Source: Escherichia phage BAU.Micro_ELP-22
Sequence record: OR699282.2
Direction: 5' to 3' (one strand)
DNA: 64,000 nucleotides
Shown: in pieces, positions 33,329-49,852 of the stretch
Layout of the letters: each line of letters begins with the position of its first letter
Numbering within the stretch: the first letter of the stretch is position 1
The notes under the pieces: model-generated
The model's input: the letters and a program-made list of their open reading frames with translations, nothing else
What the model was told of the DNA's origin: nothing
The model's database searches: none
Program-made: the position numbers and the translations under genes

Positions 33329-33864
33329 GCAGTACAACAGTATCAAAAGTACAGAAAGCAATGTCATTCAATGAAATTGGTACATTTAAAGATAAGATCA
33401 TTGATTGCCTTGAATACATGATTTGTAGTAATATCGAAAGTATCGAGATATTTAACAAGACAAATCGCTCTTACCATATGATGTACATTGCAAACAATAA
33501 TGGTATCATTCCATTTATTTCGGATAGTACAATATGGTACGCATGTGATACGAAAAAATACACAGCAGGTTCGTATAGCTTAGGGTCACATACGGAATTG
33601 ATTATTCCTGAGCATTGTATGCAAGAAGAAGAATATTTTCAAATGCAATGTATACATTCACCATTAGTGTTGTTTAGTTTATATATTATACCTTATATCA
33701 CCAAATGTGTTCATGAGAATAAAGCTCCGTGGAATCATGAATTTGTATCGTTGAAGTTATTGTATAATGTATTAGTAGAATATTATGATTACAGGCACAA
33801 TGGTACAATCAGTGATGTATGGGAATTTGAATCGCTAAGGGTGAAAACATACACAGGTGAATGA
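33325..33864 (+). CDS. F2 paralog (179 aa)
   Basis: ATGA overlap; EEEYFQMQCIH core. Confidence 0.6.
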   Translation: MSSTTVSKVQKAMSFNEIGTFKDKIIDCLEYMICSNIESIEIFNKTNRSYHMMYIANNNGIIPFISDSTIWYACDTKKYTAGSYSLGSHTELIIPEHCMQEEEYFQMQCIHSPLVLFSLYIIPYITKCVHENKAPWNHEFVSLKLLYNVLVEYYDYRHNGTISDVWEFESLRVKTYTGE

Positions 33865-34480: not shown

Positions 34481-34481
34481 T

Positions 34482-34676
34482 ATGCTTACAGTTGATGTTA
34501 AACAAAAATACCGTAAGTTTGATTGGTTCACCGACAGTTTCCAGCTTGAATTATTACATTTGAATATCTGTGAAACATTATGTGCAGAAACACAAGATGA
34601 ATTTGATGATAGAGTGATGAACATAGTAATGCTTTCTTGCTTTAAACATTTTGGTTATTTTTTCGGACAGAATTGA
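34482..34676 (+). CDS. hypothetical protein (64 aa)
   Basis: ORF between family members; no core recognised. Confidence 0.45.
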   Translation: MLTVDVKQKYRKFDWFTDSFQLELLHLNICETLCAETQDEFDDRVMNIVMLSCFKHFGYFFGQN

Positions 34677-34684
34677 GGTAAAAA

Positions 34685-35203
34685 ATGCATCAACACAAGC
34701 ATCATTCATATGATTTTGCAATTAACATTATGAAGTTCATTCGAGCGTTGGAGGATGGGAAGCTTAGTCATAAGTACAGAAAAGAGGGTAACAATTGGTT
34801 CAGAAATGATGATGATGAGTTCAGAAGTCATAAGATTGTTTACAGCAATAATTACAGTGCCAATTACCTACAAGATGTAGTGATGTGTTTTGAATACGTG
34901 TTGCAGTTCAGGGGTTCAATCCAGGATGAGTTGATGGAGCACATGTACATCAGATACCTTCCAATGCTCAAAGATGAAAATGTATTATTAAATTCAATAT
35001 ACCAACGAGTTCGTGAAATTGAGTGCAGGGATATATTAGATACAGAAGAATCGTATTTCCAGCAATCCCTGATTTATGCACCTGATTTATTACAGGTACA
35101 TAATTTGTTTAATACATTACGTCAAAACATCAGTACAGACATATTTTTGTCATTATCGGATTATGATACATTTGTCAAAGATTTAGAGGAAATAGGTTTA
35201 TGA
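34685..35203 (+). CDS. F2 paralog (172 aa)
   Basis: EESYFQQSLIY core. Confidence 0.6.
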   Translation: MHQHKHHSYDFAINIMKFIRALEDGKLSHKYRKEGNNWFRNDDDEFRSHKIVYSNNYSANYLQDVVMCFEYVLQFRGSIQDELMEHMYIRYLPMLKDENVLLNSIYQRVREIECRDILDTEESYFQQSLIYAPDLLQVHNLFNTLRQNISTDIFLSLSDYDTFVKDLEEIGL

Positions 35204-35544
35204 GTCAATTTTCGGTTTATATAGTAAACGTCAGTAAAGATGGTAGTTTAATTGAATTTGATGTAGTTGATAACAATGATAATTCATATGGTATTAAGGT
35301 ACAGGACAATGATGTACAGTTCAGTACAAGGACAAATTTTGAGAATCCAGTCCAAGTTCCGAATTTCATAGAAGATGAAGCTGCACGATTCCAATACGAA
35401 ACGGCATATGACAATGTACATATGCATATTATTATGCAAACGAGTTTAGTTCAATTAGTTCCTTTGTTCAGACAAAATATATATGTACATGAAGTGTCGA
35501 TTAATGGCATTCAAAGTTCCGTTTTGTTCGGTACAAATATGTAA
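35200..35544 (+). CDS. F2 paralog, divergent (114 aa)
   Basis: ATGA overlap; ARFQYETAYD core variant. Confidence 0.55.
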   Translation: MSQFSVYIVNVSKDGSLIEFDVVDNNDNSYGIKVQDNDVQFSTRTNFENPVQVPNFIEDEAARFQYETAYDNVHMHIIMQTSLVQLVPLFRQNIYVHEVSINGIQSSVLFGTNM

Positions 35545-35554
35545 GGAAAGTACA

Positions 35555-36106
35555 ATGAGTTCAATGAGTTTATTAGATACATTAGAAAAAGACAGAAGTG
35601 CAATTAAGCGTTTAAAAGAGCAAGTACAAAAGATTGTATACAACGTTGATAAGTTTGAAGTCCCAGGAAGATTTGGTGATATTTCCCATACGGAGATCAA
35701 ATCCCTTAAGTCAGATTTGTTGATTAAAAATAAAAATGGGTTGATTTTAGTTTTGAGTTCAGATATGATGGGGGCAACACATAGTTATAATGCAGTATCG
35801 GTGCGTTCAGAGTGTGAAGGTATATATCTATCACAGGGTTTCAATAGCGAGACACAGGTTTGTTTTTGTGATGCAGTACATGACCCTATGAAGTTCACGA
35901 GAAGTGAAGCCCAAGCGTTATTAGAGCTATCAGACGAGAGTTTGTTTCAGTACAGTACAATGTATGACAATGATAAGCTTCGTTGTATGTACGCTGTAAA
36001 GCATTATACACAGGAGTTTTCTGGATTTGCATACCTTTTAGTTAGAACCAATACCAGATATATTGATATGTTAGAAGATTACATCGATAAAGTTGTTAAT
36101 GTATGA
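35555..36106 (+). CDS. F2 paralog (183 aa)
   Basis: Track ORF 35483 trimmed to ATG 35555 (SD AAGGAAAG); DESLFQYSTMYD core. Confidence 0.6.
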   Translation: MSSMSLLDTLEKDRSAIKRLKEQVQKIVYNVDKFEVPGRFGDISHTEIKSLKSDLLIKNKNGLILVLSSDMMGATHSYNAVSVRSECEGIYLSQGFNSETQVCFCDAVHDPMKFTRSEAQALLELSDESLFQYSTMYDNDKLRCMYAVKHYTQEFSGFAYLLVRTNTRYIDMLEDYIDKVVNV

Positions 36107-36296
36107 TGTATTATTATGGGATGGGATAATGCTGATGAAAGAGTTATTTGAAGATCAGTTCAATACATATGTGGATAATATTCTTTATTCCAGCCGTGCT
36201 AGTCAACGAGGAAATCGTGCTTACAATATAGATTACCTATTAGTGGTGCTGAGTTCACAGTACACCTACGCTGTACAGAGGACATATTATGAATAA
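36093..36296 (+). CDS. hypothetical protein (67 aa)
   Basis: Small overlapping ORF, no core. Confidence 0.4.
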   Translation: MLMYDVLLWDGIMLMKELFEDQFNTYVDNILYSSRASQRGNRAYNIDYLLVVLSSQYTYAVQRTYYE

Positions 36297-36492
36297 TTTT
36301 AGAGATGTTGCTAAGGAGAAGTTCAAGTGCAGTTTAGATTACGGTTTAAATGATTTTCTTACATGCACAATGTACAGGAATGATGATTATGAGCAATCCG
36401 TAATTTCGTTGCACAGATATTTCGAAATAATTTACGCAAGATATCTTAGAAGGTTAGATGGGATAGGGGATTGGAATTATGATTACGTTTGA
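36289..36492 (+). CDS. hypothetical protein (67 aa)
   Basis: Small overlapping ORF, no core. Confidence 0.4.
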   Translation: MNNFRDVAKEKFKCSLDYGLNDFLTCTMYRNDDYEQSVISLHRYFEIIYARYLRRLDGIGDWNYDYV

Positions 36493-36688
36493 AGAGCCGG
36501 AAGTGTTAAGTTCGCATAGTATTAAGGGTTTTGAATACATGATGGATTTGATTTTGAAGGATACATATTTGGTTCAGAGTGTAGATAATACGGTACACCG
36601 AGTATTGAATTTATACGAGATGACGAGTCGAAGGCTTTGTGCGATGAAAAGGATTGAAGAAATCAAGCTTTCTAGGCTGAATAAATAG
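36479..36688 (+). CDS. hypothetical protein (69 aa)
   Basis: Small overlapping ORF, no core. Confidence 0.4.
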   Translation: MITFEEPEVLSSHSIKGFEYMMDLILKDTYLVQSVDNTVHRVLNLYEMTSRRLCAMKRIEEIKLSRLNK

Positions 36689-36884
36689 AGACGTTTCATT
36701 TTTACAGGCCGCAGGGGGTCAAAAAAATTTCCGCTGAAAAACATGCTAAGGTATATGTTTAATATAAAGTTTTATATTGTGTTTTTCAGAGTACAGTCCA
36801 TGTTTCCTGAAACAAAAAATACCCCGCCCCCGCAACGTGCTCCTTATATTGGAGTTTACCTTATTAATTATAGTAGAGATTAAG

Positions 36885-37262
36885 ATGGAAATAAAATATA
36901 ATGAATTTTGTGCAAGGACATGGATGTACACTGGTGAGTTAGTTACGCACTCTAACTTATACAAGGGTGATTTAAACTACGCTAGGGACAAGATTTTAAA
37001 GTACTGGAATGCTGACTTTTATTTGATGGATTTTAGTACTGGGTTTCATGGGATATCTATCGAGATGCCGGACTATACAGTACTTGATGATGCTGCACTG
37101 TTCCAGGAGGCATTAGTATTTGATAAGAAGTACATCTGTACATTAGAAGAGATGATTGAATTACAGCGTAGAATTAAATGTATTCACAGGGAATGTATAG
37201 ATATCTGGTGCAGTACTGGTGAGGCCGATTTCTGGAAATTTTTTAATCTAGGAGAAGAGTGA
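36885..37262 (+). CDS. F2 paralog, subfamily ELFQESLVFDKKY (125 aa)
   Basis: Track ORF 36777 trimmed to ATG 36885; MPDYTVLDDAALFQEALVFDKKYICTLEE. Confidence 0.6.
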   Translation: MEIKYNEFCARTWMYTGELVTHSNLYKGDLNYARDKILKYWNADFYLMDFSTGFHGISIEMPDYTVLDDAALFQEALVFDKKYICTLEEMIELQRRIKCIHRECIDIWCSTGEADFWKFFNLGEE

Positions 37263-37618
37263 TGGAATTTGATTTTTTAATATCAGTACATACTTTCAAG
37301 CACAGTTATCAGTACTTTTGTAATTTAAACAAAGGTGATTTAATGCACAGTGCGAATGAGTATGTTCATTACACTCAGGGTAAATTTACATTCATTGATT
37401 ACAGTTCATTACAGTATCCACACCAAGATATGCCGGACTATACATTAATGGATACCGCAGAACTATTCCAAGAATCATTAGTATTTGATAAGAAGTACTT
37501 GTGTACATTTGAAGAAGTTATTGCAATACAAAATGAAATGAAAGAGTATGCTGCTTTGCATAAACCCAATGCAAGTATTAATCAAGAATACAAATTCAAT
37601 TTAGGAATTCAAGAATGA
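37259..37618 (+). CDS. F2 paralog, same subfamily (119 aa)
   Basis: ATGA overlap; MPDYTLMDTAELFQESLVFDKKYLCTFEE. Confidence 0.65.
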   Translation: MMEFDFLISVHTFKHSYQYFCNLNKGDLMHSANEYVHYTQGKFTFIDYSSLQYPHQDMPDYTLMDTAELFQESLVFDKKYLCTFEEVIAIQNEMKEYAALHKPNASINQEYKFNLGIQE

Positions 37619-37974
37619 CATATGATTATTCTATGTACTATTATAAGTTACCTAAAGGATGGGACTTGTGCTGTAATCTTATTAAGGGCGACTCGGAACA
37701 TGAGTTGAGTTTATATATGCATTACAAAGATTCTTGTTTTAAATTTATTCATGTATCACATGACGACTATGACTATGAATCTGAGAGTCTTATAGATTAT
37801 ACAGTACTGGACGATGGCGAACTATTTCAGGCTGCATTAGTGTTTGATAAGAATAAGTACTCCTGTACATTTGAAGAAATGGTTTCTTTGCAAAATGAAA
37901 TGAAGAGATTTGAAAAAGAAAACGTATTTAATCCATCCCCATCAAGAACGAATAATTATTATTTCAATATATGA
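37615..37974 (+). CDS. F2 paralog, same subfamily (119 aa)
   Basis: ATGA overlap; IDYTVLDDGELFQAALVFDKNKYSCTFEE. Confidence 0.65.
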   Translation: MTYDYSMYYYKLPKGWDLCCNLIKGDSEHELSLYMHYKDSCFKFIHVSHDDYDYESESLIDYTVLDDGELFQAALVFDKNKYSCTFEEMVSLQNEMKRFEKENVFNPSPSRTNNYYFNI

Positions 37975-37983
37975 GATTATAAA

Positions 37984-38475
37984 ATGACATTACAGAGTTC
38001 ATTGGAAAAAGCAAAGAAGATTCATGAGTACATGAATATGGCAAAAGAAGGTTCAGTTTACGGTGTTTTCAAAGACACAAGTACTCAATATTATGTACCG
38101 GATAACCTCCTTTATAATGACTGCTCAGATACAGAAACGTGCGTACTGGATACAGAAACGTGCATACTAGATACCGACCCTAATGATTATGAATGCTTCA
38201 TTAATATGCATAATGAGTACATGGTCTATATTAATGATACAGATACCATCAACAGTACTGACAGCGATTCCAATGACATTATAATTCCGAGTGAAGTACT
38301 GGAAGGTCCGTGGGATAGTGAAGAGTATTACTTCCAACAAAGTACTGTATATGATAATGAAGTACTTGATGTTATTATAATTATGTGGTACTTTAAAAGT
38401 ATTGGTTCTGGGAACTTCTATTTCGATTACAAATACGTAAAGAAAACTGTAGATAACGGTATTAACAGGGGTTGA
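37984..38475 (+). CDS. F2 paralog, subfamily MSLESALK (163 aa)
   Basis: EEYYFQQSTVYDNEVLDVIIIMWYFKSIG; very close to 39387..39878. Confidence 0.65.
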   Translation: MTLQSSLEKAKKIHEYMNMAKEGSVYGVFKDTSTQYYVPDNLLYNDCSDTETCVLDTETCILDTDPNDYECFINMHNEYMVYINDTDTINSTDSDSNDIIIPSEVLEGPWDSEEYYFQQSTVYDNEVLDVIIIMWYFKSIGSGNFYFDYKYVKKTVDNGINRG

Positions 38476-38476
38476 A

Positions 38477-38947
38477 ATGAGTTTAGAAAGAGCATTAGAG
38501 ATTGCGAAGTTAATTGATTTATGCAGCAAAGAAATTGTAGCAAATTGTCTTAATGGATATCTATTCAAGGAAGGTAAATCTTATTGTCGAATGAGATACG
38601 ATGACAGTAGTGAGTACATTCACATGTATGAAGAAAACTTAGATTCTTCTGAAACAACACTCAATGGGTGTGATGTTAATTTGGAAGATAATTACATGTA
38701 CTTCTGTCGTGATGCTGATATTTTAATACAAGATTCTGACATTATATCTGGTGCAGCAGAGAAACATCTTCCGTATTCAGTACTGGATAATGACTGGGGA
38801 AGTGAAGAGTTCTACTTCCAGCAGAATACTATCTACGAGGAATATGTGCTTGACAAGCTTGTCATTCTGTGGTACTTTAATAATACCGATTGTCCTAGCT
38901 TCTATCTGGACTTGGATCTACTACGAGTTATTAAAGAGGATATATGA
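38477..38947 (+). CDS. F2 paralog, same subfamily (156 aa)
   Basis: EEFYFQQNTIYEEYVLDKLVILWYF. Confidence 0.65.
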   Translation: MSLERALEIAKLIDLCSKEIVANCLNGYLFKEGKSYCRMRYDDSSEYIHMYEENLDSSETTLNGCDVNLEDNYMYFCRDADILIQDSDIISGAAEKHLPYSVLDNDWGSEEFYFQQNTIYEEYVLDKLVILWYFNNTDCPSFYLDLDLLRVIKEDI

Positions 38948-39384
38948 GTTTAGCAAGTGCACTTAAACTGGCACACAAAATACATCACTTCCACGATAAC
39001 ATAAAAAGTGGTTTCTATGGTGATAAAGTAAGTGCATTTGGTAATGAGTATTATCTATCAGGTATAAAGACATACTCTGATGATATTTTACTTATGGGCC
39101 ATGATAAAGACAATACTATACAGTACTCTTCATGTAGTCAATATACTAGTTTCTTTGTATATATTCCAGGTACTAAGATTACTTTTGACACATCAAATAC
39201 ACCTGTTGACTTCGGGGTACTTGATGGGCCGTGGGGTACTGAAGAGTATTACTTCCAACAGAGTCTTATTTTTAACCAAGAAATGCTTGATTCCTTGGTT
39301 GTTTTGTGGTACTTTAAGGAATTGAATTTTGAACCCTTCTTCCTTGACTGGGGAGCATGTGAATATTTAAGTACAGGGGATTAG
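38944..39384 (+). CDS. F2 paralog, same subfamily (146 aa)
   Basis: ATGA overlap; EEYYFQQSLIFNQEMLDSLVVLWYF. Confidence 0.65.
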   Translation: MSLASALKLAHKIHHFHDNIKSGFYGDKVSAFGNEYYLSGIKTYSDDILLMGHDKDNTIQYSSCSQYTSFFVYIPGTKITFDTSNTPVDFGVLDGPWGTEEYYFQQSLIFNQEMLDSLVVLWYFKELNFEPFFLDWGACEYLSTGD

Positions 39385-39386
39385 TA

Positions 39387-39878
39387 ATGTCATTAGAAAG
39401 TGCATTGAAAGAAGCAAAGAAGATTCATGAGTACATGATTATGGTACAAGAAGGTTCAGTGCCTGGTGTGTATAAAACATCTGATACTGAATTTTTTGTA
39501 AAAGACCGCGACGATTATGATGAGTCAGAGATACATGCAGAAACGTTAGTACTACACACTGATACGGGTGATACTGATGACTGTGAATATCATATGTACA
39601 ATCAGTACATTAGTTATTGTAGAGATGAAGATATTATAATTTACAGCCCTGATTACGATGATTATGACACAATCATTCCGTATTCAGTACTAGAAGGTCC
39701 GTGGGATAGTGAAGAATATTACTTCCAGAATAGTACGTTGTACAATGAAGAAGAATTAGATGTTATTGTAATTATGTGGTACTTTAAAAGTATTGGTTCT
39801 GATAGTTTCTATTTCGATTATGAATACGTAGAGAATACTGTAGGGGAAGATAATGTCATTACAAAGTGCTCTGGATAA
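39387..39878 (+). CDS. F2 paralog, same subfamily (163 aa)
   Basis: EEYYFQNSTLYNEEELDVIVIMWYFKSIG. Confidence 0.65.
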   Translation: MSLESALKEAKKIHEYMIMVQEGSVPGVYKTSDTEFFVKDRDDYDESEIHAETLVLHTDTGDTDDCEYHMYNQYISYCRDEDIIIYSPDYDDYDTIIPYSVLEGPWDSEEYYFQNSTLYNEEELDVIVIMWYFKSIGSDSFYFDYEYVENTVGEDNVITKCSG

Positions 39879-40296
39879 AGCAAAAGAACTACAGGTATAT
39901 ATTGAAGATATCAAGGCTGGGAAGTTCGAAGAAGTATACAAAGCCGAGAATGGTAACTACTACAAGGATAGTGATTTTGCTACAACTACAGTTATTCTTG
40001 GGTTGAATTCCAAAAGTCCCGCAGATTTTTCACAATACAATCCAGATGCAGAATTTATCAGTTATGCTTATGGTGGTGAAATCCGTTTTTATAATCGCAG
40101 CAGACCTTTAAAATTGAACTTTGAAGTACTGAAAGGTCCGTGGGATAGTGAAGAGTATTACTTTCAGAATAGTACTTTGTATGATGATGAAGTACTAGAT
40201 ACTTTAGTTATTATGTGGTACTTTAAAAGTATTGATAGTACAAGGTTTTATTTGGATTATGAATATGTACGTGCCGAACATAAGGGTAAACGATGA
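39853..40296 (+). CDS. F2 paralog, same subfamily (147 aa)
   Basis: EEYYFQNSTLYDDEVLDTLVIMWYFKSID. Confidence 0.65.
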   Translation: MSLQSALDKAKELQVYIEDIKAGKFEEVYKAENGNYYKDSDFATTTVILGLNSKSPADFSQYNPDAEFISYAYGGEIRFYNRSRPLKLNFEVLKGPWDSEEYYFQNSTLYDDEVLDTLVIMWYFKSIDSTRFYLDYEYVRAEHKGKR

Positions 40297-40607
40297 AATT
40301 ATTATACAGTATTCAGTACATTCCAGGTACAATTAGTTTAATGTATTTCTTCGATCATGATAATTTCCAGCACCTTGCCGTTAGAAGATGTAATGAATCT
40401 TTAATGATTGAATATCTTCACGATTGTGATTATCTTCCTGACTTCCTTGAATGTGATTACAGAGATGATCATGAATCATTTATTTTTCAGGAATCACTTG
40501 TATGGGATAAGAGAATTAATTTTTATGCTTTACTTGAGATACAAAAACATGTGAAGTACTACTGGGATTACTTAATTACCCAAAAATATATAGAGATTGA
40601 AATATAA
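40293..40607 (+). CDS. F2 paralog (104 aa)
   Basis: ATGA overlap; HESFIFQESLVWD core. Confidence 0.6.
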   Translation: MKLLYSIQYIPGTISLMYFFDHDNFQHLAVRRCNESLMIEYLHDCDYLPDFLECDYRDDHESFIFQESLVWDKRINFYALLEIQKHVKYYWDYLITQKYIEIEI

Positions 40608-41080
40608 TGTACGAAAGTGATCTTAAGCACGCTGAGGAATTAGTTAATATAGTAAAGTTCTTTCAAAATAATGTAAAGTACTTAGACGACAAAGGGGCAT
40701 ATATTAGTACTATAAGTGTTGGTACAGATATTCTAGGATTAGGTAATGAATATAAGTACGAGTCCCATGATTATGATTTGGAATTCAAGTACTTCGAATG
40801 GAATCCTGGAACTTTCTATTCAATCGATGAAAGTGGGAAATATTTTGAATTCACCGAAGAAGACGTACTATTCTTAAATTCAGAAGATGCTTACTTCCAG
40901 TACAGTACTATATACCCAAATAGTGCATTAAGATCTTTAGTAGTTTTTAATGCATTTCTGAAAGAGAACTTTAATAATTCTATATTCATTGATTTAAATT
41001 ATGTATATGAACTAAATCAGGTGATATATATGGAGTCCAGAAAAAATGAGTTACGAAAGTGCAATCAAGAAAGCAAATGA
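40607..41080 (+). CDS. F2 paralog (157 aa)
   Basis: EDAYFQYSTIY core. Confidence 0.6.
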   Translation: MYESDLKHAEELVNIVKFFQNNVKYLDDKGAYISTISVGTDILGLGNEYKYESHDYDLEFKYFEWNPGTFYSIDESGKYFEFTEEDVLFLNSEDAYFQYSTIYPNSALRSLVVFNAFLKENFNNSIFIDLNYVYELNQVIYMESRKNELRKCNQESK

Positions 41081-41492
41081 TATTCTAAAAGTTGTTAAGT
41101 TCTTCAAAGAAAATCCTGAATACGTAGATGATGAACGAAGAGAAGTTTCTAATGGCACGAAGATTACAATTGATTCTTTATTTGATACTAGCAACAACAA
41201 CTGTAGTACTATTGAATTAGCATACGATTATATTTCATTGAACAGAAAATATGATGAAGTTACGATAGAGCGTCATGAGAATGAAGAATCTTTTAAAATT
41301 TCTGATATTTTATCTCTGAGTACAGAAGAAGGGTACTTCCAGGGAAGTACTGTTTATAATGAAGGAACACTAGACAATCTATGTACATTTAGTGTACTAT
41401 ATCAGAAGTCAGTACTGGATATATTTTATCTAGACACTGAAAAACTTGATAGGTTAGTTGATTTCGTTACTATAGAAGAGGCATCCGTTTGA
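41046..41492 (+). CDS. F2 paralog (148 aa)
   Basis: EEGYFQGSTVY core. Confidence 0.6.
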   Translation: MSYESAIKKANDILKVVKFFKENPEYVDDERREVSNGTKITIDSLFDTSNNNCSTIELAYDYISLNRKYDEVTIERHENEESFKISDILSLSTEEGYFQGSTVYNEGTLDNLCTFSVLYQKSVLDIFYLDTEKLDRLVDFVTIEEASV

Positions 41493-42025
41493 GAAAAATT
41501 AACATTAATGATTATGATGCATTACAAGATTTATCAAAAAAGATTCGCACTATCGTACCAGTACTGAAGAAATGCAGTACTGGTTTAATCGATCCTAGTA
41601 CTGTTGTTAATGAGAAGTACAATTTTCATTATGTATTACAGGGTACTGGGGCATTCCAGAAGTGTGAGGTGCGTGAGACACACGTAATTGATACATCATT
41701 GTTTTCTATTGGTGCACCTGTGTCGAATAATACTATTTTCCTAGACAACGCTGGAAATATTCAACAATTAACATTTAAGAAAAGGAAAAAGAACAATAAC
41801 ATTGGTGTGTATGCGATGAAGTGGGGTCAACCTGATTTGAAGCGTGAAATTCACATCCCTAAGTACAATTACAATGCATTTGACGAACAGTGTTTTCAAC
41901 TATCGTGTACTGACCCTGACTATGCTATTATTCAGTTCTATATGGAATTGCAGATAGCATTTAACAGTAATTTGTATATTAACTTATTGGCGATGAACAT
42001 CGATGAAGTATTCAAAAACATTTAA
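41489..42025 (+). CDS. F2 paralog, divergent (178 aa)
   Basis: ATGA overlap; DEQCFQLSCTD core variant. Confidence 0.55.
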   Translation: MRKININDYDALQDLSKKIRTIVPVLKKCSTGLIDPSTVVNEKYNFHYVLQGTGAFQKCEVRETHVIDTSLFSIGAPVSNNTIFLDNAGNIQQLTFKKRKKNNNIGVYAMKWGQPDLKREIHIPKYNYNAFDEQCFQLSCTDPDYAIIQFYMELQIAFNSNLYINLLAMNIDEVFKNI

Positions 42026-42221
42026 TCGAATTGAATACATGAGAACTGTGAGTGCAGTGTGGGACATATGGTTCACTACTAAACCAAAAATGGATTACCA
42101 TGACTTTAAGCTCTTGTTCTTCGTTGGCTCTAACAAACAGGATGTTGCAATGAAGGGTTATATTCAGCACTTACAGGAACTAATCCAGAAGAGAATATAT
42201 GAAAATAATAGACCAAAATGA
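42003..42221 (+). CDS. F1-type paralog embedded in F2 array (72 aa)
   Basis: FFVGSNKQDVAMKGYIQHLQELI core. Confidence 0.55.
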   Translation: MKYSKTFNRIEYMRTVSAVWDIWFTTKPKMDYHDFKLLFFVGSNKQDVAMKGYIQHLQELIQKRIYENNRPK

Positions 42222-42390
42222 CATTGCTAAACTATTCAATATATATTCTACTAGAATGATGCAAACAGACTCATATAGTACTGAATTCAAAGAGTTGAAA
42301 GTCCTGATGTACTTGGGAACCCAATATCAGGAACAAGTTATTTTGGAATATATTAATTCGCTGAAGAAGGATATCCGTTATGTACGATGA
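42199..42390 (+). CDS. F1-type paralog embedded in F2 array (63 aa)
   Basis: MYLGTQYQEQVILEYINSL core. Confidence 0.6.
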   Translation: MKIIDQNDIAKLFNIYSTRMMQTDSYSTEFKELKVLMYLGTQYQEQVILEYINSLKKDIRYVR

Positions 42391-42940
42391 TTTAGATCTT
42401 GCGTTTGAACGTATGGTAATTTTAATGCAATGTGCAGAAATGCATGAAACAATCCGTCGCACCAAAGGGATTGAATATACAAGTAAACTATTCTCATACG
42501 AAAGTCGTCGAGGGATGGATCATTTTTACTGCACTGATTGTTCAAAGTTTTCAGTACTGAAATATTATCATCCTACTGTTTCCAATAATAGTTTAATATC
42601 CACATATGACGGTGATCTGTTTAGTGTAATGTATGACACATTACATCCATCAATTTCAATCTATAAAGATTGCGATAGTAGTTTATCGTATATAATTGAA
42701 GATTACTTATCTCCTAATACTGAAGAGAATATTTTTCAGAACAGTGTGTTGTATGATGAATTAAGTATAAAATGCATCTATATGTTCAATAAGTTAAAAG
42801 AGTACGCCGATAATAATTACTTAATTGATAAGTTAGCAGTATTGTCTGTTTCCGTTTTTAATACAAATGACATTGATATGAAATACTATAATGAGATTTG
42901 TAAAGTACATCATATGTATAAGGAACTATTATGTCAATAA
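42380..42940 (+). CDS. F2 paralog (186 aa)
   Basis: EENIFQNSVLYD core. Confidence 0.6.
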   Translation: MYDDLDLAFERMVILMQCAEMHETIRRTKGIEYTSKLFSYESRRGMDHFYCTDCSKFSVLKYYHPTVSNNSLISTYDGDLFSVMYDTLHPSISIYKDCDSSLSYIIEDYLSPNTEENIFQNSVLYDELSIKCIYMFNKLKEYADNNYLIDKLAVLSVSVFNTNDIDMKYYNEICKVHHMYKELLCQ

Positions 42941-43533
42941 ATGCAAATAAATGTTGTAGTGCAGATGTGCATTTGTTTTTTAAGAAATTAGCAAATGATA
43001 TTATATATATGCAGGAAATGATTTATCACAAACGAGCGGATTTAGAAAAAGCATTAGTACAGTTCTCATTTATGCTTGATGGTGATATATTTCTAGAGAG
43101 TGATGCATTGCGAATAGTATTAGACAAAAATGCTAAAAGATTTTTATTTCATATAGATAATAAATTATGTTCCTCCGTATGTCGTACTTTTTATAATCGT
43201 GATTCGGACTTATATCAATTCCTTTATTCTAAAGGTGCAGTAGAAGCATCATATGGTGATGGTTATGCCCTAGGAAAGAGTATTCCATTTATGAAATCAT
43301 TTAAAATAGAACACATCAGTACTGATGAAGATGTAATGTTCACAAATGATATAACTATGGGACGTGAAGATGCAATGCGATATATTACAAATTCTATGCA
43401 TACATTCTTTCAACGAACAGAATTTGATAATGTATATATATCAAATGTAAATATTTTCAATGACCTGTGTCAGTACTTGAAAAGTGTTTGTGATTTTGAT
43501 GAAAGCTATTGTAAGCTATACACTGAGGTATAA
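42931..43533 (+). CDS. hypothetical protein in array (200 aa), core not evident
   Basis: Long ORF; possible degenerate core DVMFTNDIT. Confidence 0.5.
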   Translation: MSINANKCCSADVHLFFKKLANDIIYMQEMIYHKRADLEKALVQFSFMLDGDIFLESDALRIVLDKNAKRFLFHIDNKLCSSVCRTFYNRDSDLYQFLYSKGAVEASYGDGYALGKSIPFMKSFKIEHISTDEDVMFTNDITMGREDAMRYITNSMHTFFQRTEFDNVYISNVNIFNDLCQYLKSVCDFDESYCKLYTEV

Positions 43534-43538
43534 AACCA

Positions 43539-43901
43539 ATGAACACATTAAGTATTACATACTATACAACTAAAAAATTAGTTACTTGTTTAATATCATT
43601 GAAGACAAATCATGATGATATGTTTGATATGGCGGCATATGAATTAGAATTATCAGAAGATGGCTTCAAGAGCTATGAAGTATATAGCTATGTTCGTGAA
43701 GATGTAATTGACACTACACTAATGCAAGAGGATGAGTTATTCCAAGAAAGTTTAGTATGGGATAATAAGTACGATTGTAACTTTGATTTCTTATGTTTAA
43801 TCCAGAAAGAAATGAAAAGAATCTTTGATAATTATCCAGTGAAGAGATTGAGTACTGGACCGGAGCAGTACAGGAGAATTTTATTCCGTTATGAAGACTG
43901 A
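43539..43901 (+). CDS. F2 paralog, ELFQESLV subfamily (120 aa)
   Basis: EDELFQESLVWDNKYDCNFD. Confidence 0.6.
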   Translation: MNTLSITYYTTKKLVTCLISLKTNHDDMFDMAAYELELSEDGFKSYEVYSYVREDVIDTTLMQEDELFQESLVWDNKYDCNFDFLCLIQKEMKRIFDNYPVKRLSTGPEQYRRILFRYED

Positions 43902-44226
43902 ATTAGTGAAAGTAATGTACGCTACTCATATTAAACTACTACTTGTGAAATTTGATTATAATAAAAAACATAATGATTTCTATACTTTAATTCGTGATGA
44001 AAATACATTCTCCTTGCGATGCAACAATATACCGTTGAAGATAAATGATTTTACTTCACTTGACGAGGGTGAATTATTTCAAGAATCATTAGTTTTTAAT
44101 AGTAATATAAAAATTGATATAGAAGTTATTAAAAAATACCAGATTTTATTGAACAAAATTATGAATTGTTATCCATGTGAAATAGGTGGTCATATGCAGT
44201 TCAAATCAAAAATGTATGAATTATGA
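43891..44226 (+). CDS. F2 paralog, ELFQESLV subfamily (111 aa)
   Basis: EGELFQESLVFNSN. Confidence 0.6.
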   Translation: MKTELVKVMYATHIKLLLVKFDYNKKHNDFYTLIRDENTFSLRCNNIPLKINDFTSLDEGELFQESLVFNSNIKIDIEVIKKYQILLNKIMNCYPCEIGGHMQFKSKMYEL

Positions 44227-44233
44227 GGTTTAT

Positions 44234-44770
44234 ATGTTAGATGAAAAAATGAACAATGGAACACAATATAATCATCTTAAGTTAGATACATTCGAATCAG
44301 CTATCAGTACTGCACAAGATATAATTGATATTATCAAGTTCATTAAAGAAAATAAGTTCAAATGTTTGAAAATACTAAATCGTTCAATGTACCGTGATAA
44401 CAATATTCATGTATCAGTACGTAGACCGAAAGATAAAGAAAGTGGGAGAGATTTCTATAACAACAGTGAGCAGTTCGAATGTGAATATGATCCAGAATTC
44501 AGAGGCGGTTTCATGTGTTACAGTATAAAGGATACCTCACACATTGAGATACGTTCATCGAAAGGTGGCATACGTACATTAGAGTTCATTGATATAGTTT
44601 TAAATCAGGAATACTACTTTCAACTATCATTATTGTTTCCTGCATACGATTTAGGAGTTCTATTCATGTATAAGTACTTTTATGAGCACTGGAATGAAGA
44701 CTTCTATCTGGACTTAGAAGATTACCAATTAGTTTGGAAAGAAATGGTAGAACTTCGCAATCCCTCTTGA
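44234..44770 (+). CDS. F2 paralog (178 aa)
   Basis: Track ORF 44186 trimmed to ATG 44234 (SD GAGG); QEYYFQLSLLF core. Confidence 0.6.
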   Translation: MLDEKMNNGTQYNHLKLDTFESAISTAQDIIDIIKFIKENKFKCLKILNRSMYRDNNIHVSVRRPKDKESGRDFYNNSEQFECEYDPEFRGGFMCYSIKDTSHIEIRSSKGGIRTLEFIDIVLNQEYYFQLSLLFPAYDLGVLFMYKYFYEHWNEDFYLDLEDYQLVWKEMVELRNPS

Positions 44771-44819
44771 CACCCACCGATTCTTTGTGATATAATCCCT
44801 TTATATTAATTGTAAAGGG
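44767..44819 (+). promoter_or_regulatory. Internal array promoter with stem-loop
   Basis: TTGACA 44767-44772, 18-bp spacer, TG-n-TATAAT 44791-44796, hairpin CCCTTTA..TAAAGGG 44797-44819. Confidence 0.6.
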
Positions 44820-44829
44820 TTATAACACA

Positions 44830-45306
44830 ATGTCCAAAGACCTATCATTTAGCAATGCACAAAAAATAGCAAAAGACATTATCAGGGTTTATAAATTCCT
44901 TGCGAATGTTACTGAAGATTTTTCCGTGGGGGAACATAAAGTTATTAAACGAAATGGATACCTTTCATTTATGGATGGGTTACTCTATAGTTCAGATGAA
45001 TCAACTTGTAGCATTAGAGTACTTGATGAAGTACCAAGTGGTGATTTTATTTCATACCATTTTCCAAGTTCAGATAATTTCAAATACTACAATCATCTTC
45101 TTATAAATGAAGCATTTAATACGATTGTAATTAACACTGAAGAAGAGTTCTTCCAGTACAGTACTGTGTATCCAGAGAGGATTGTTTTCAGTTCAGTGAT
45201 TTTAACAGCCCTTAAAAATGAACTAAATTCCGATAGTGATCATTTCTACTTGGACCTGAACAATGTCGATTGTATTATTGAGTACCTGGAGAAAAATGGT
45301 TTATGA
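44830..45306 (+). CDS. F2 paralog (158 aa)
   Basis: EEEFFQYSTVYP core. Confidence 0.6.
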   Translation: MSKDLSFSNAQKIAKDIIRVYKFLANVTEDFSVGEHKVIKRNGYLSFMDGLLYSSDESTCSIRVLDEVPSGDFISYHFPSSDNFKYYNHLLINEAFNTIVINTEEEFFQYSTVYPERIVFSSVILTALKNELNSDSDHFYLDLNNVDCIIEYLEKNGL

Positions 45307-45788
45307 TTACTACAGAATATGATTACTATGGTGTTTTAGAATTTACAGAAAATATCTATCGCATTGCAAAGGAGTTCAGAAGTCCTAAGCCTTTTGGTGG
45401 AATGCCTTTTGGTGGTATGTTTCAATACGATGAGTTCAGTTCATCTAAAGGAAGACTAGCATTTACTAATGGTAGAGGTAATCAAATCTACGCGGAGTAC
45501 TTTGATGATAATGACTTTCATTACAAAGCCGAATACATTTCATATTGCCCTGGGTCTGATTTGAAGATTAATATTGATACATTTAGAGAAGCAGTATTTG
45601 TTCCGTATAATGATTTAGTCTTCATGTCAGAGGAAATGTACTTTCAGGGTTCTTGTATTCATGATGTAAAAGTACTTAATGCTATGTTATTTTATGGTGC
45701 ACTACTTAATCATTACAAATACAATCAACGATTCTTTTTAGATTTAGCAGTCTACTATAAATGCGTGGATTATTTGAATGCAAAATAA
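45303..45788 (+). CDS. F2 paralog (161 aa)
   Basis: ATGA overlap; EEMYFQGSCIHD core. Confidence 0.6.
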   Translation: MITTEYDYYGVLEFTENIYRIAKEFRSPKPFGGMPFGGMFQYDEFSSSKGRLAFTNGRGNQIYAEYFDDNDFHYKAEYISYCPGSDLKINIDTFREAVFVPYNDLVFMSEEMYFQGSCIHDVKVLNAMLFYGALLNHYKYNQRFFLDLAVYYKCVDYLNAK

Positions 45789-46140
45789 GAAAACAATTCA
45801 GTACATGACGGATGGCAATGAATGCTTTGCTTCAAGATATGAATTCAACAAGAACCATTTCGTAACCTATATCCCTGAATATAATCAGTTTTATCTACAG
45901 ATTTACCAAAATGATTCATATATGAATGAGATATATTCTGAAATAAAAATCCTGGATTATAGTACTTTATCAGAAGAGGAATTGTTTCAGCAGAGCACTA
46001 TCAGTACTGAAGATGTGTATGAAATAATGGAATACCAGAAGGTACTTAAATATTTCCATGAAGTTCAGGATATACAAATGGATAGTGTTAAAGCGTGGAA
46101 TTATAACACATACGAGGTAAATTATGTTCGAAATGATTAA
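45778..46140 (+). CDS. F2 paralog (120 aa)
   Basis: EEELFQQSTIS core. Confidence 0.6.
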   Translation: MQNKKTIQYMTDGNECFASRYEFNKNHFVTYIPEYNQFYLQIYQNDSYMNEIYSEIKILDYSTLSEEELFQQSTISTEDVYEIMEYQKVLKYFHEVQDIQMDSVKAWNYNTYEVNYVRND

Positions 46141-46537
46141 AATTATGCAACGATGTATTGTAGACCAACACGGGATATATGGATATAGTTTAAGTGCTCC
46201 TATTGACAAAAATAAAACAACCTATGTAAGCTATAATGCTGTACAAGGATTTGATATATTCATTGATGCCAACAATAAAATCAAACAAGCTAAGGATGTG
46301 TCTATAATGACCCCTGACGAGCTATTTCAGTACAGCTTAGTTCTGCCTACCTGTATTGATTTACAACGTCTAGGAGCTATACAGAAGGTTTTACGCGAAC
46401 ATAAAGTACAACCCAATAAAGTCACACACATTCCAGAAACAATCTTCAAAACCATAGAAGTAGAAACTCCTGATTATATGTTAAGTGATGATGAGTACTA
46501 CGAGAAACACTTCCCTGGTAAAGTTTGGAGAGACTAA
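46124..46537 (+). CDS. F2 paralog (137 aa)
   Basis: PDELFQYSLVLP core. Confidence 0.6.
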   Translation: MFEMIKIMQRCIVDQHGIYGYSLSAPIDKNKTTYVSYNAVQGFDIFIDANNKIKQAKDVSIMTPDELFQYSLVLPTCIDLQRLGAIQKVLREHKVQPNKVTHIPETIFKTIEVETPDYMLSDDEYYEKHFPGKVWRD

Positions 46538-47019
46538 TGAACCGAAAGTACAGAGAAACTATGAAGTTCGCTAAGGAGTGTTTAGAGACAGTTGATTTCA
46601 TTTTCGATAACAAAGACTCACTGGGTCATCACTTCGTAATTACAAAGAAAGAAGATAAGAGATACAAGTGTGAAAGATTAGGATACAGTATTGAGTTCTC
46701 CTTAATGATTGATGGAATGATAAACTCCTTATATGAATGTGGTAAGACTGATTACCTTTCATTTAGATCATGGAGTGAAGGTATCATGTTCTTGAGAACA
46801 AATGGAGTTTTATATCCGTTTCTTGATGATTTATCAGAAGAAAGTTACTTTCAAAATAGTTTAATTTACACAGAAAAAGAACTCAAGATGCTATTCATTA
46901 TGTCGTACTTTAAAAAGTACTGCAATTTTAAATCATTATCTTTTGAGATCTCTGCAATGAAAGTATTCATTAAAAATGTAAAAGAATTAAAGAGGATTTA
47001 CGATGTACATAGAAAATGA
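46525..47019 (+). CDS. F2 paralog (164 aa)
   Basis: EESYFQNSLIY core. Confidence 0.6.
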   Translation: MERLMNRKYRETMKFAKECLETVDFIFDNKDSLGHHFVITKKEDKRYKCERLGYSIEFSLMIDGMINSLYECGKTDYLSFRSWSEGIMFLRTNGVLYPFLDDLSEESYFQNSLIYTEKELKMLFIMSYFKKYCNFKSLSFEISAMKVFIKNVKELKRIYDVHRK

Positions 47020-47545
47020 TAATGTAAAATGCATTGCCGACATTTGTATAAAATTAATGAAAATTTTCATTAACCCAAAATACAAGACTCGTTCTTTACG
47101 TCATAATATTGATGAGCATTGTACCATTAATATACTAGGTAGTATTCTTGATGTAAAATATGATGGTAAAATGTTATTCGGTATAAGAGAAGAGAAGATA
47201 GATGATGCATTCTTTTCTTCTAAAGATAAATTTGAACCTTCTGATTATAAAGTGATTATTCGTGATGATAGCATCTATATTAGTAGTGATTATTCAAATT
47301 ACTTCGATAAAATATACACTGAAAACGTTGACTACCATTATGAAATGATTGATTTACCAGTAACAGACATTGATATGGAGAGAATCAAATTTTCATTATC
47401 AGATAATGAGTACTTAGGTATACAAACATATTATTCACTACAAGGAAAGATTCCACCTGCTATGTATATAAGGATTGAGATTGGTAATGTATTCAATGAT
47501 AAGGTTATATCAATTGCTGATAAAATATTGAGGGTTGAATTATGA
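47003..47545 (+). CDS. hypothetical protein in array (180 aa), core not evident
   Basis: Long ORF, ATGA coupling to next gene. Confidence 0.5.
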   Translation: MYIENDNVKCIADICIKLMKIFINPKYKTRSLRHNIDEHCTINILGSILDVKYDGKMLFGIREEKIDDAFFSSKDKFEPSDYKVIIRDDSIYISSDYSNYFDKIYTENVDYHYEMIDLPVTDIDMERIKFSLSDNEYLGIQTYYSLQGKIPPAMYIRIEIGNVFNDKVISIADKILRVEL

Positions 47546-48105
47546 ATATCAATGATTACCAATTTCATAGGCTTGAATTTCGTCATTGTGTTGCATTTGC
47601 AAAAACATTGATGTGCATCATTGACACTCTTTCATCCAAACAATTTCGTAAGGATAATGATTTATTTCTGAAAAAAGGTCGTGTAACATCATCCGATATC
47701 AGTGTTGAACTATTTGTTGATATCAGTGTTGATACCGGAGACAGTACAAGGGTTGGTTGTATAGGTCATATTGGTACACATTGCTTCACATGGAATCCAA
47801 ATACAAGTCAAGTACGAATTGATTATAGAAATTCACGTTGGGTTGATCTTAGTACTGAATCCGATTTAGAATCAGCTATGTTCCAGCTAAGTTTAATTCA
47901 CAATCCTAATGAACTTCTTTACATTATTACTTTCAGTTATCTGTTACAAAACTACGATAATCCATCAGGGTTTTTCATAGAATCGGATATAGAAGAAATT
48001 ATGGAAGAGTTTCCTAGTTTAAAGGATATTCTGGAAGAAAAAGATTTCTATGAAGACTTCAGAGATTTATACGACATGCACTTGGAGTTATTTAAGAATG
48101 GATAA
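47542..48105 (+). CDS. F2 paralog (187 aa)
   Basis: ATGA overlap; LESAMFQLSLIHN core. Confidence 0.6.
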   Translation: MNINDYQFHRLEFRHCVAFAKTLMCIIDTLSSKQFRKDNDLFLKKGRVTSSDISVELFVDISVDTGDSTRVGCIGHIGTHCFTWNPNTSQVRIDYRNSRWVDLSTESDLESAMFQLSLIHNPNELLYIITFSYLLQNYDNPSGFFIESDIEEIMEEFPSLKDILEEKDFYEDFRDLYDMHLELFKNG

Positions 48106-48616
48106 AGATGATATTCTAATTAGACTAATTAAGAGTTTAATAAAGTTCTCAAATAATGATGTCGATACATACAAAGTAGGGGATATTGAATTCAAATCAT
48201 TTGGTATGTACGGTGAGGACAAAACATATTATGCGTCAATGAAAATTCAAGATTTTCACGAGATGTTAATATCGTTATCATATGAAGATGTTGATCCAAG
48301 ATGGAGTTCCAGTATTTCACTATCGAGAATGGTAATTCGTAGTAAGCATCGTTACATTTCGTCAAAGAATACTCCTAACTTGATTAATATTGTGTTGAAT
48401 GAAAATACCAATCCTATATCTAAACTTGATATCGTACCGTTAACCGATGAAGTACTTTTTCAATTGAGTACCATTTGTGATGAAGATGTGATATCATGTA
48501 TGAAAATTTATGAGACGGTTGGGAGTGATATTCCCATGAACTATTACCTAACGATAGATGGAACATACCTCAGAGATGAAGCTCTAGCGTACATTGACAG
48601 TGTTTTACCAAAATAA
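48098..48616 (+). CDS. F2 paralog (172 aa)
   Basis: Track ORF 48050 trimmed to ATG 48098 (overlaps upstream stop); DEVLFQLSTICD core. Confidence 0.55.
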   Translation: MDKDDILIRLIKSLIKFSNNDVDTYKVGDIEFKSFGMYGEDKTYYASMKIQDFHEMLISLSYEDVDPRWSSSISLSRMVIRSKHRYISSKNTPNLINIVLNENTNPISKLDIVPLTDEVLFQLSTICDEDVISCMKIYETVGSDIPMNYYLTIDGTYLRDEALAYIDSVLPK

Positions 48617-48640
48617 AGACCCTTATTGGGTCTTTTTGTG
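48617..48640 (+). terminator. Rho-independent terminator inside array
   Basis: AGACCC-TTATT-GGGTCT then TTTTTGTGTTT. Confidence 0.75.
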
Positions 48641-48648
48641 TTTACGTC

Positions 48649-48677
48649 TTTACAGTAGCATTCAGATGTGTTATAAT
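48649..48677 (+). promoter_or_regulatory. Promoter with extended -10
   Basis: TG-T-TATAAT 48669-48677; weak -35 TTACAG; precedes gene 48705. Confidence 0.5.
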
Positions 48678-48704
48678 CGCTTTTAATAGAGTACAGGAGA
48701 AGAT

Positions 48705-49271
48705 ATGAGTACTGAATTAATTAAAGAAGTTACCTTACTTCTGAAGCATTGTTTTAAGTTCATTCCTGATACTGGTTCACGCCAGTACATTAAAGTTAAT
48801 GAGAAATATAACATCAATATCCTTGTATCTGAAACTGCGAGCAGTTATGCTAACATTGAGTTGGATTCTGAAGAAAAATATACAGTATTACAAATCATAG
48901 CAGATGTACAACGTAAACAAGATTATCGTTCTTCATTTTACAACGATTATCTGTGTGTTTGCTCAAACTTCAGTGAGAATAAAATTGTGTATAAGAATTT
49001 ATACACACATGAAGTGATTGATACATATAATTATAAAATTTCATCTGATGAATACAATGTGCTAATGTTCAACGCAAACCTTTTGTATGATGCCAGTACT
49101 GTACGCTGTTTAGAGTTAGCATATAAAATTCCAAAGATCATGGAAAGAAAAGATTTGATTCACTTTAAAACTATTTTAAAATACAGTACAAAAGAATTAG
49201 AGGATTTAGTACAGGCTCTTAAGAATTTCATTAATGAACATGTACCTGTTAAATTCGAGGATGCACAATGA
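48705..49271 (+). CDS. F2-like paralog (188 aa)
   Basis: SD AGGAGA; variant core VLMFNANLLYD. Confidence 0.55.
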   Translation: MSTELIKEVTLLLKHCFKFIPDTGSRQYIKVNEKYNINILVSETASSYANIELDSEEKYTVLQIIADVQRKQDYRSSFYNDYLCVCSNFSENKIVYKNLYTHEVIDTYNYKISSDEYNVLMFNANLLYDASTVRCLELAYKIPKIMERKDLIHFKTILKYSTKELEDLVQALKNFINEHVPVKFEDAQ

Positions 49272-49852
49272 ACCATATCAGAACTAAAATTTTGAGACTC
49301 ATGCATGACATTGCAGAACTTTCAGAGATTCATGACATTACAGAAATTGTTGAATTTGATGATTATCGACTGAAAATTGAAAACAAATCCAAACATCGTT
49401 TTGGATCAGTTCAGTTGGATGTATATAAAACTTATGAATTTTCTAAAAAAATTAAAAGTTCATGGGATACGATTACTATGTACATTCGCACATCCAGAAA
49501 TCGTGAACGTATTGGTTCTATTTCTTCTAATATGGTATTTGCGAATGCATTACATGAAAAAATGAATAAAATTGTAGAATCTGATTTCAGTGAAGATGAT
49601 GGTTTTATTGGGTTGGATGTTCCACCAGAATTAGACCAAAGTGAAGATATTCGAGATGCATTCATTTTCCAGAAATCATTGTTGGACAATTACAAAGAAT
49701 TCGAGTACTTAATGCTTTGTTACGATACTGCAAAAGTTCTTGATTGTGGTGAACTAGTTATGTACAATGATTTTATCAATTACAAGACTGATGTTCTGAA
49801 TACACTACTTCAAAATATAGAATCGGTTAAGGAAAAATATGAACGCTTATAG
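49268..49852 (+). CDS. F2 paralog (194 aa)
   Basis: ATGA overlap; DAFIFQKSLLDN core. Confidence 0.6.
   Translation: MNHIRTKILRLMHDIAELSEIHDITEIVEFDDYRLKIENKSKHRFGSVQLDVYKTYEFSKKIKSSWDTITMYIRTSRNRERIGSISSNMVFANALHEKMNKIVESDFSEDDGFIGLDVPPELDQSEDIRDAFIFQKSLLDNYKEFEYLMLCYDTAKVLDCGELVMYNDFINYKTDVLNTLLQNIESVKEKYERL

Follow-up and report, generated by a model that had tools for sequence, protein, structure and literature searches.

In African swine fever virus (ASFV) the gene families MGF360 and MGF505 are interspersed in the left variable region of the genome, and poxviruses are known for their 'genomic accordions'; the terminal multigene families of these viruses are thought to act on host defences. 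In jumbo bacteriophages, Bacillus phage G carries a lineage-specific expansion of ~35 zinc-ribbon genes whose products were suggested to bind DNA or to act as transcription factors (Iyer et al. 2021, PMC7824862), and about 10% of the RaK2 genome consists of paralogues (PMC3622015). Here we describe a stretch of 64,000 nucleotides (nt) from Escherichia phage BAU.Micro_ELP-22 (record OR699282.2), hereafter the window, in which two families of tandem paralogues, F1 and F2, occupy long arrays and four F1 genes are embedded among the F2 genes. These four genes are genuine members of the F1 family (phrog_4148), far beyond what chance would produce. We consider it probable that they are old, functional F1 lineages held at fixed sites and co-transcribed early with F2 genes, and that their products likely bind host factors. 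New here are the interleaving of F1 and F2 across genera and an account of the structure and context of both families; we found no paper on either family, its expression or its function.

Four genes within the F2 array belong to the F1 family

The families were defined by all-against-all BLASTP and iterated hidden Markov models (HMMs) on plus-strand open reading frames (ORFs), and form two adjoining arrays:

21506..27499, plus strand: contiguous F1 array of 26 tandem genes of 65-96 amino acids (aa), from clustering and HMM
27489..55977, plus strand: F2 array of 43 members found by iterated HMM, with a long form of ~150-207 aa and a short form of ~104-137 aa

The F1 consensus is MK.L...EY ... 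E.....LGTNYQE..V..YI..L. In a leave-out test, all six-frame window ORFs of at least 40 aa were searched with an HMM that had only the 26 genes at 21506..27499 as its input. Exactly four additional ORFs matched, named here by their start positions, and the next best candidate had an E value of 0.94. The isoelectric point (pI) is given where noted:

42003..42221, plus strand: embedded F1 gene F1a, 72 aa, pI 9.7, motif VGSNKQD; leave-out HMM E 5.8e-6, 22 bits; phrog_4148 E 8e-4; RaK2-only HMM E 1.8e-5
42199..42390, plus strand: embedded F1 gene F1b, 63 aa, motif LGTQYQE; leave-out HMM E 9.4e-13, 43 bits; phrog_4148 E 1.2e-16; RaK2-only HMM 41 bits, third of 30
28800 (TTG)..29012, plus strand: embedded F1 gene, 70 aa, motif LGSIAQD; leave-out HMM E 1.6e-5, 20 bits; phrog_4148 E 5.6e-5
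28961..29248, plus strand: embedded F1 gene, 95 aa from its longest start, pI 5.1; leave-out HMM E 5.5e-8, 28 bits; phrog_4148 E 1e-4

For the third of these the TTG start at 28800 is favoured over an ATG at 28839, as conserved residues lie upstream of the ATG in the orthologue from the divergent Asteriusvirus A4. The array members themselves score 32-75 bits when left out one at a time (median 57), and three of the embedded genes, all but 42199, fall below every one of them. By these scores, 42199 is a typical F1 member and the other three are real but more diverged. The F1 motif, which begins with a hydrophobic residue and lies in the C-terminal half of the protein, is clear in 42199 (LGTQYQEQVILEYINSL) and 28961 (LGTKDQEDTVQKFIKHL), and degenerate yet alignable in 42003 (VGSNKQDVAMKGYIQHL) and 28800 (LGSIAQDQCVDKLIWSL).

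Two further profiles agree. All four genes match phrog_4148 (E 1.2e-16 to 8e-4), as do core genes of the array, and a profile made solely from homologues in RaK2 recovers exactly the 26 array genes plus the four (E 2e-13 to 3e-4; next best 0.29), with E values for the embedded genes of 1.3e-12 to 2.9e-4. The original prediction, made from the letters alone, had placed two F1-type genes at 42003 and 42199 and two more at 28839..29248 within the F2 array; the array-only HMM, phrog_4148 and the RaK2 profile all bear this out. It had also held that a phylogeny in which the four are not F1 relatives would overturn it, and by the profile evidence they are true relatives. Scored against the F2 HMM the four give E values of 1.6-6 and are neither fragments nor domains of F2 proteins; they encode stand-alone proteins of 63-95 aa.

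The pair at 42 kb is annotated as two coding sequences of identical lengths and overlap in phages SP27, 121Q, WPEC5, Turkey3, EC.P1 and phAPEC6, and is present in ~32 records by tblastn. Gene 42003 corresponds to 121Q gp379 and phAPEC6 gp433c, gene 42199 to 121Q gp380 and phAPEC6 gp432c, and the pair to SP27 EO157G_3550/3560. These orthologues share 96-100% amino-acid identity with the window genes and have the same lengths, overlaps and neighbours, so that nothing substantive differs between them. The database entries for the phrog_4148 orthologues carry no function, and the literature is silent on members lying apart from the main array. Against more distant genomes the ratio of nonsynonymous to synonymous substitution rates (dN/dS) lies at 0.02-0.22 in the case of 42003 and at 0-0.19 in that of 42199; for the F2 genes on either side, informative comparisons yield 0.10-0.17. 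The 42 kb pair is under purifying selection, in a range like that of its F2 neighbours.

These data bear on the suggestion that the embedded genes are chance frames or decaying pseudogenes in the spacers between F2 genes. In its favour, the genes are short and, 42199 excepted, score lower than any array member. However, dN/dS of 0.02-0.22 over many synonymous changes, intact frames of conserved length in ~32 genomes and A4, and family-specific matches in three independent profiles make it almost certain that this suggestion is wrong. One ORF of the main array does resemble an F1 copy that has decayed or diverged strongly:

23210..23458, plus strand: degenerate ORF inside the F1 array, F1 score E 0.5, degenerate motif LMTGTDKNAIAKSIDMFIEA, annotated as a coding sequence in phage vB_Ec-M-J

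Age and mobility of the interleaved genes

Asteriusvirus A4 has the same layout as the window, a long F1 run followed by F2 genes with F1 genes embedded at matching places. Its positional orthologues are reciprocal best matches at 59% (28800), 74% (28961), 42% (42003) and 39% (42199) identity. The number of F1 array copies varies from 26 in the window to 25 in vB_Ec-M-J and 19-20 in A4, and both embedded pairs are constant; A4 and vB_Ec-M-J have one extra embedded F1 gene, near the F1/F2 border, which the window lacks.

Interleaving also extends to another genus. In the Klebsiella phage RaK2 (Alcyoneusvirus), profiles derived from the window identify 13 F1-type genes at 244.9-276 kb, in runs of 1-3 scattered among ~35 F2-type genes, in the order (1, F1; 2, F2) 11222......1......2...22222..11.......2.111.....111..221222222222222. 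The F1-type genes are ORF362, 372, 389-390, 399-401, 407-409 and 414, and the F2-like array comprises ORF412-439 (including ORF412, 415 and 416); ORF414 (262777..262998) is a lone F1-type gene that overlaps F2 genes on either side. A Foldseek search of predicted viral structures (BFVD) with the F2 model returned uncharacterised proteins of RaK2, GAP32 and Serratia phage BF, and RaK2 ORF420 matches Asteriusvirus F2 directly (tblastn, 31% identity, E 1e-4), so the homology of F2 to RaK2 proteins is backed by HMM, fold match and tblastn. The two ends of the RaK2 record hold only one weak F2-like ORF. RaK2 thus resembles the window in that both families are recognised reciprocally by profiles and F1 is interleaved with F2; it differs in having no long contiguous F1 array, its runs being no longer than three. 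ORF362 and ORF372 (L014:30148-30534 and 33813-34160) share a C-terminal extension of ~50 aa. Given the interleaving in RaK2, the association of F1 with F2 and its interleaved arrangement therefore predate the split of the genera.

An exhaustive F1 profile search of 1.84 billion proteins yielded only 106 representatives, 104 of them 52-96 aa long and almost all stand-alone proteins; the named homologues belong to Asteriusvirus or to RaK2/K64-1-type phages, and word-index matches all lie on contigs of ~350 kb or on fragments. A scan of IMG/VR with the back-translated F1 motif returned 21 loci, the sole real one being 121Q itself. F1 is confined to RaK2-like jumbo phages.

Three F2 genes border the embedded pairs:

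41489..42025, plus strand: F2 gene upstream of the 42 kb pair; F2 HMM E 3.7e-22; overlaps 42003 by 23 nt; dN/dS 0.10-0.17
42380..42940, plus strand: F2 gene downstream of the 42 kb pair; F2 HMM E 7.3e-21; overlaps 42199 by 11 nt
28499..28816, plus strand: short-form F2 gene upstream of the 28.8 kb pair; F2 HMM E 3.7e-16; overlaps 28800 by 17 nt

Identity to EC.P1 and Turkey3 is 94-100% over 41.6-42.2 kb, falls to 84-86% within 42199..42390 and reaches 56-72% over 42380..42940, where EC.P1, Turkey3 and WPEC5 carry a strongly diverged allele with synonymous divergence (dS) above 2. With WPEC5 included, the drop is from 96-100% to 56-70%. From this drop a recombination boundary therefore separates 42003 from 42199 and 42380, with the breakpoint at or inside 42199, and the 42 kb pair does not move as one unit. 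Elsewhere in the array, 40607-41080 is replaced in 121Q by another gene, and F2 genes are swapped as alleles between otherwise close phages.

The neighbour-joining tree of F1 has a star-like shape. It pairs 28800 with 28961 as sisters (72% bootstrap), attaches 42003 to them with weak support (23%) and places 42199 within the array genes; 42003 and 42199 are not sisters (0.5% bootstrap). It was proposed beforehand to check whether the flanking F2 genes are closest to F2 genes near 27.5 kb; they are not, as 41489 and 42380 have no close paralogue at 27.5-29 kb, and 41489 has none within the window. Segmental duplication or translocation of an F2-F1-F1-F2 block was considered and rejected, having no support from paralogue similarities or from the tree.

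It could still be supposed that the embedded genes are recent arrivals, which left the F1 array through recombination, homologous or illegitimate, with F2 neighbours perhaps carried along. In favour of this, F2 alleles have been replaced in this mosaic region, a breakpoint lies close to 42199, and the number of embedded F1 genes differs by one between genomes. Yet the A4 positional orthologues are just 39-74% identical, the embedded genes have no close paralogue in the F1 array (best BLAST E ~2e-5), the F2 genes that flank them have no close relatives near the other pair, and the same embedding is seen in RaK2. A recent origin by shuffling is thus highly improbable. The original prediction that the families move together by recombination survives as long-term linkage, in A4 and RaK2; no duplicated block accompanies it, and the breakpoint splits the 42 kb pair.

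Properties of the F1 and F2 proteins

F1 and F2 are unrelated to one another (profile-profile probability by hhalign, 0.2%), and F1 as a domain of F2 was rejected on the same comparison. The AlphaFold2 model of 42199, the one member that the F1 fold prediction covers, was made with the family alignment and has helices at residues 6-20, 28-37 and 44-62 with a predicted local distance difference test (pLDDT) score of 84.5; F1 is accordingly predicted to be a generic three-helix bundle. F2 is predicted to have an alpha+beta fold without a match in the PDB. Column identity among F2 members is ~13%, and F-Q within the motif EE.(Y/F)FQ.S is invariant in all 43. An example is DSEEYYFQNS at residues 107-116 of the product of 39387-39878, and the RaK2 version is EEDSFFQQ. 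In the model this motif lies in a short helix ahead of the long C-terminal helix and may simply be part of the structural core; superficially it is like a tobacco etch virus (TEV)-type protease site (ENLYFQ/S).

Pfam searches with representatives and with all 30 F1 and 43 F2 members gave nothing above threshold and nothing recurrent, and sequence-profile searches of the PDB gave no match below E 0.2 for either family. Nor did F2 show a Pfam or structural match to known immunity or inhibitor folds such as the SUKH/SMI1_KNR4 type. F1 proteins are mostly basic (median pI 8.8), although seven of the 30 are acidic, several with pI 4.5-5.3. F2 proteins are strongly acidic, with a median pI of 4.9 and a median net charge of about -9.

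Small, helical, mostly basic proteins encoded in probably early operons could be nucleic-acid-binding or transcription-factor-like regulators that tune those operons, the embedded copies acting locally on F2 operons. However, a helix-turn-helix domain sought in F1 by sequence and by fold was not found, no Pfam DNA-binding domain is present in any of the 30 members, the acidic members fit such a role poorly, and thirty diverged copies would be unusual for a regulator. We therefore regard this possibility as improbable.

Three longer ORFs touch on the families. P0186 (269 aa; locus L009:10001-10810, on several contigs of ~350 kb) has an N-terminal F1 domain followed by 200 aa; it was examined as an F1-F2 (Rosetta-stone) fusion and rejected, the C-terminal 200 aa being neither F2 by HMM or hhalign nor similar to anything in the window. 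P0001 (154 aa), found in other genomes or assemblies, is an F1-F1 fused ORF equivalent to 25524 plus 25763, and P0101 (242 aa) joins two short F2 forms of the 36777/37259 type; either of these two could be a genuine fusion, or else an artefact of frameshift or assembly where genes overlap.

Junctions between the families and a possible partnership

Genes 42003 and 42199 overlap by 23 nt, and the embedded genes overlap their neighbours by 11-52 nt. Whatever the pairing (F1-F1, F2-F2, F1-F2 or F2-other), most junctions overlap by 1-62 nt, and since such overlaps are the rule across both arrays, coupling of F1 to F2 is not specific. The embedded genes had been described as translationally coupled to F2 neighbours; the overlaps are real, but they have no specificity, and the ORF downstream of the 28.8 kb pair, 29214..29606, is not F2.

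A more attractive alternative is that F1 proteins are cognate partners or regulators of F2 proteins, for example by docking of basic F1 on acidic F2, and that the embedded F1 genes serve the adjacent F2 genes. The families co-occur and interleave in two genera, their net charges are opposite, their genes overlap and share operons, and 42199 carries the diverged haplotype of the downstream F2 gene 42380. On the other side, there is no one-to-one adjacency: 30 F1 genes face 43 F2 genes, 26 of the 30 lie in a block free of F2, and in RaK2 the numbers are 13 and ~35. No F1-F2 fusion was found, the C-terminal part of P0186, the one long F1-domain protein, not being F2; F1-F1 and F2-F2 junctions overlap just as often; and the joint inheritance of 42199 and 42380 would be expected simply from their being adjacent. 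Partnership is, on balance, unlikely. A stronger form, in which F1 and F2 would make up a two-component system of RaK2-like jumbo phages that supplies combinatorial early anti-defence effectors, with each embedded F1 dedicated to the flanking F2, is rather more doubtful. If true, ~70 genes, ~10% of the genome, would be one functional system and not two unrelated expansions.

Probable transcription units and virion evidence

The best sigma-70-like sites on the plus strand, and terminator-like hairpins, lie in the few intergenic gaps:

28205..28233, plus strand: sigma-70-like promoter, TTGACA-17-TATAGT with TG, 11/12, in the gap ahead of the unit with the 28.8 kb pair
32721-32742 and 32759-32787, plus strand: terminator-like hairpin, then sigma-70-like promoter (11/12); putative upstream limit of the unit with the 42 kb pair
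44767..44796, plus strand: sigma-70-like promoter, perfect 12/12, TTGACA-18-TATAAT, in the nearest intergenic gap on the downstream side of the 42 kb pair
48615-48677, plus strand: hairpin at 48615 just upstream of a sigma-70-like promoter at 48649 (11/12)
51923-51941: terminator-like hairpin in an intergenic gap
56605-56625: terminator-like hairpin in an intergenic gap

All four gap promoters (28205, 32759, 44767 and 48649) carry an extended -10 TG. Overall counts of promoter-like sites are no higher than in shuffles, and intergenic DNA, 2.5% of the sequence, contains four of the ten best plus-strand sites (P = 7.5e-5). These consensus matches suggest that the arrays are organised as a few operons transcribed by host RNA polymerase, with the 28.8 kb pair probably in a unit of 28.26-32.7 kb and the 42 kb pair in one that ends at 44.77 kb.

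The virion proteome table of phAPEC6 lists nothing between gp347 and gp549. The orthologues of the genes studied here are gp430c-436c and gp481c; their products are absent from the virion and are therefore not structural.

Position in the genome

By megablast, window positions 40-46 kb match 33 phage records, all of them Asteriusvirus-type jumbo phages of Escherichia and Salmonella, the nearest being Escherichia phage SP27 at 97.7% identity; 121Q is at 92%. The plausible genes of the window are on the plus strand throughout, and there are no tRNAs. The window is in essence the leftmost ~64 kb of the genome of an Asteriusvirus jumbo coliphage and begins at about its physical left end, because the vB_Ec-M-J record, offset from it by ~118 nt, has an annotated direct terminal repeat (DTR) at 1..21525 and its first small tandem gene at 21624. 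DTRs of ~20.7-21.5 kb have been reported for Sharanji, fEgEco12 and vB_Ec-M-J, the repeat of ~21 kb having been determined with PhageTerm for Sharanji and with PhageTerm and restriction digests for fEgEco12 (PMC11895373, PMC13070987).

~1..21400, no strand: left DTR, mapped from vB_Ec-M-J, G+C content 0.36-0.41

The left DTR ends near 21.4 kb, the F1 array follows directly on a 250-nt gap at 21256-21505, and G+C content changes across the boundary from ~0.39 to ~0.31, the low value of both arrays, which begin ~100 nt inside the DTR boundary. Within the repeat, 12962-13318 encodes a GNAT acetyltransferase (Pfam PF00583, E 4e-9), the only recognisable domain among ten larger ORFs scanned in the terminal repeat and the post-array flanks. 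The left-end region of relatives is also annotated with a Ser/Thr kinase and a DksA-like zinc-finger protein, and these genes fit a role of the left end in host take-over.

About 20 ORFs within the F2 array belong to neither family, and they map as follows:

28263-28508: neither-family ORF; small protein, its N-terminal segment hydrophobic and probably membrane-spanning
29214-29958: neither-family region
34482-34676: neither-family ORF
36093-36688: neither-family region, with a trio of ~67-aa genes at 36093, 36289 and 36479
42931-43533: neither-family region
47003-47545: neither-family region
48705-49271: neither-family region
50417-50845: neither-family region
52526-54125: neither-family region
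54655-55489: neither-family region
56020-56493: neither-family region

Some neither-family ORFs of 140-200 aa may be F2 genes diverged past detection, for example 53118 (E 0.011) and 35200 (E 0.004). Beyond the arrays, gene sizes run alike in window 56657-59530 and RaK2 276758-279605, with a protein of ~283-297 aa, three small genes and a protein of ~282-286 aa. This similarity, in size and order only, suggests conserved synteny; the 283-aa window protein is not conserved outside Asteriusvirus, and tblastn with it does not reach RaK2.

Discussion

We favour the reading that the four embedded genes are old F1 lineages. They would be relics of an ancestral interleaved layout and not recent escapees from the array, and would have held the same places between F2 genes from a time before Asteriusvirus radiated. 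The interleaving seen in RaK2, with F1 runs of 1-3, is probably near the ancestral state; in Asteriusvirus, tandem duplication would then have enlarged one F1 run into the contiguous array and likewise expanded the F2 block. Because the genes lie next to the DTR, point in the same direction, follow host-type promoters and have products that are absent from the virion, we infer that they are early, intracellular products of host RNA polymerase. Each embedded F1 gene would share a transcript with the F2 genes beside it, and the proteins of both families may bind or neutralise variable host factors in host take-over or anti-defence, with the conserved motifs forming a structural core and the variable surfaces conferring specificity. 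By analogy with multigene families at the ends of other large viral genomes, such a host-targeting role seems the likeliest for families that diverge fast and vary in copy number.

Several points weigh against this interpretation. No expression data for Asteriusvirus were found in the literature, and the early timing and the operons rest on consensus scans. The function is proposed by analogy, as neither family has a Pfam, PDB-sequence or informative fold match. The star-like, weakly supported F1 tree is compatible both with an interleaved ancestor and with secondary mixing in RaK2. Finally, persistent interleaving and opposite charge would also be expected from a true F1-F2 partnership.

The specific finding is modest gene-family bookkeeping, in that it adds members to a catalogued, uncharacterised family in genomes already sequenced and annotated. 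Its setting is larger: F1 and F2 together span ~35 kb, about one tenth of these 350 kb genomes, at the site where the DNA probably first enters the cell. Their cross-genus linkage, the probable host promoters and a confidently predicted F2 fold without a solved relative offer a frame for experiments on host take-over by jumbo phages, and the four embedded genes are small, well-defined targets for asking whether the families cooperate.

The tandem duplication that earlier papers describe as expanding a jumbo genome probably corresponds to the F1 array, the F2 array or both; coordinates, family assignments, structures and functions are absent from those papers, which also leave the two families and their interleaving unmentioned. 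The zinc-ribbon genes of phage G resemble F1 in that a gene for a small protein has multiplied in tandem, on a large scale, in a jumbo phage. F1 differs in fold and lacks any cysteine or zinc motif, and phage G has a single family where the window has two interleaved. The terminal families of ASFV and poxviruses have no sequence or fold relation to F1 and F2, whose host is bacterial and whose host-interaction role is proposed here. In organisation, however, they are alike: the F1 and F2 arrays, too, are tandem, fast-diverging paralogues near a genome end, variable in copy number between strains and made up of two interspersed families.

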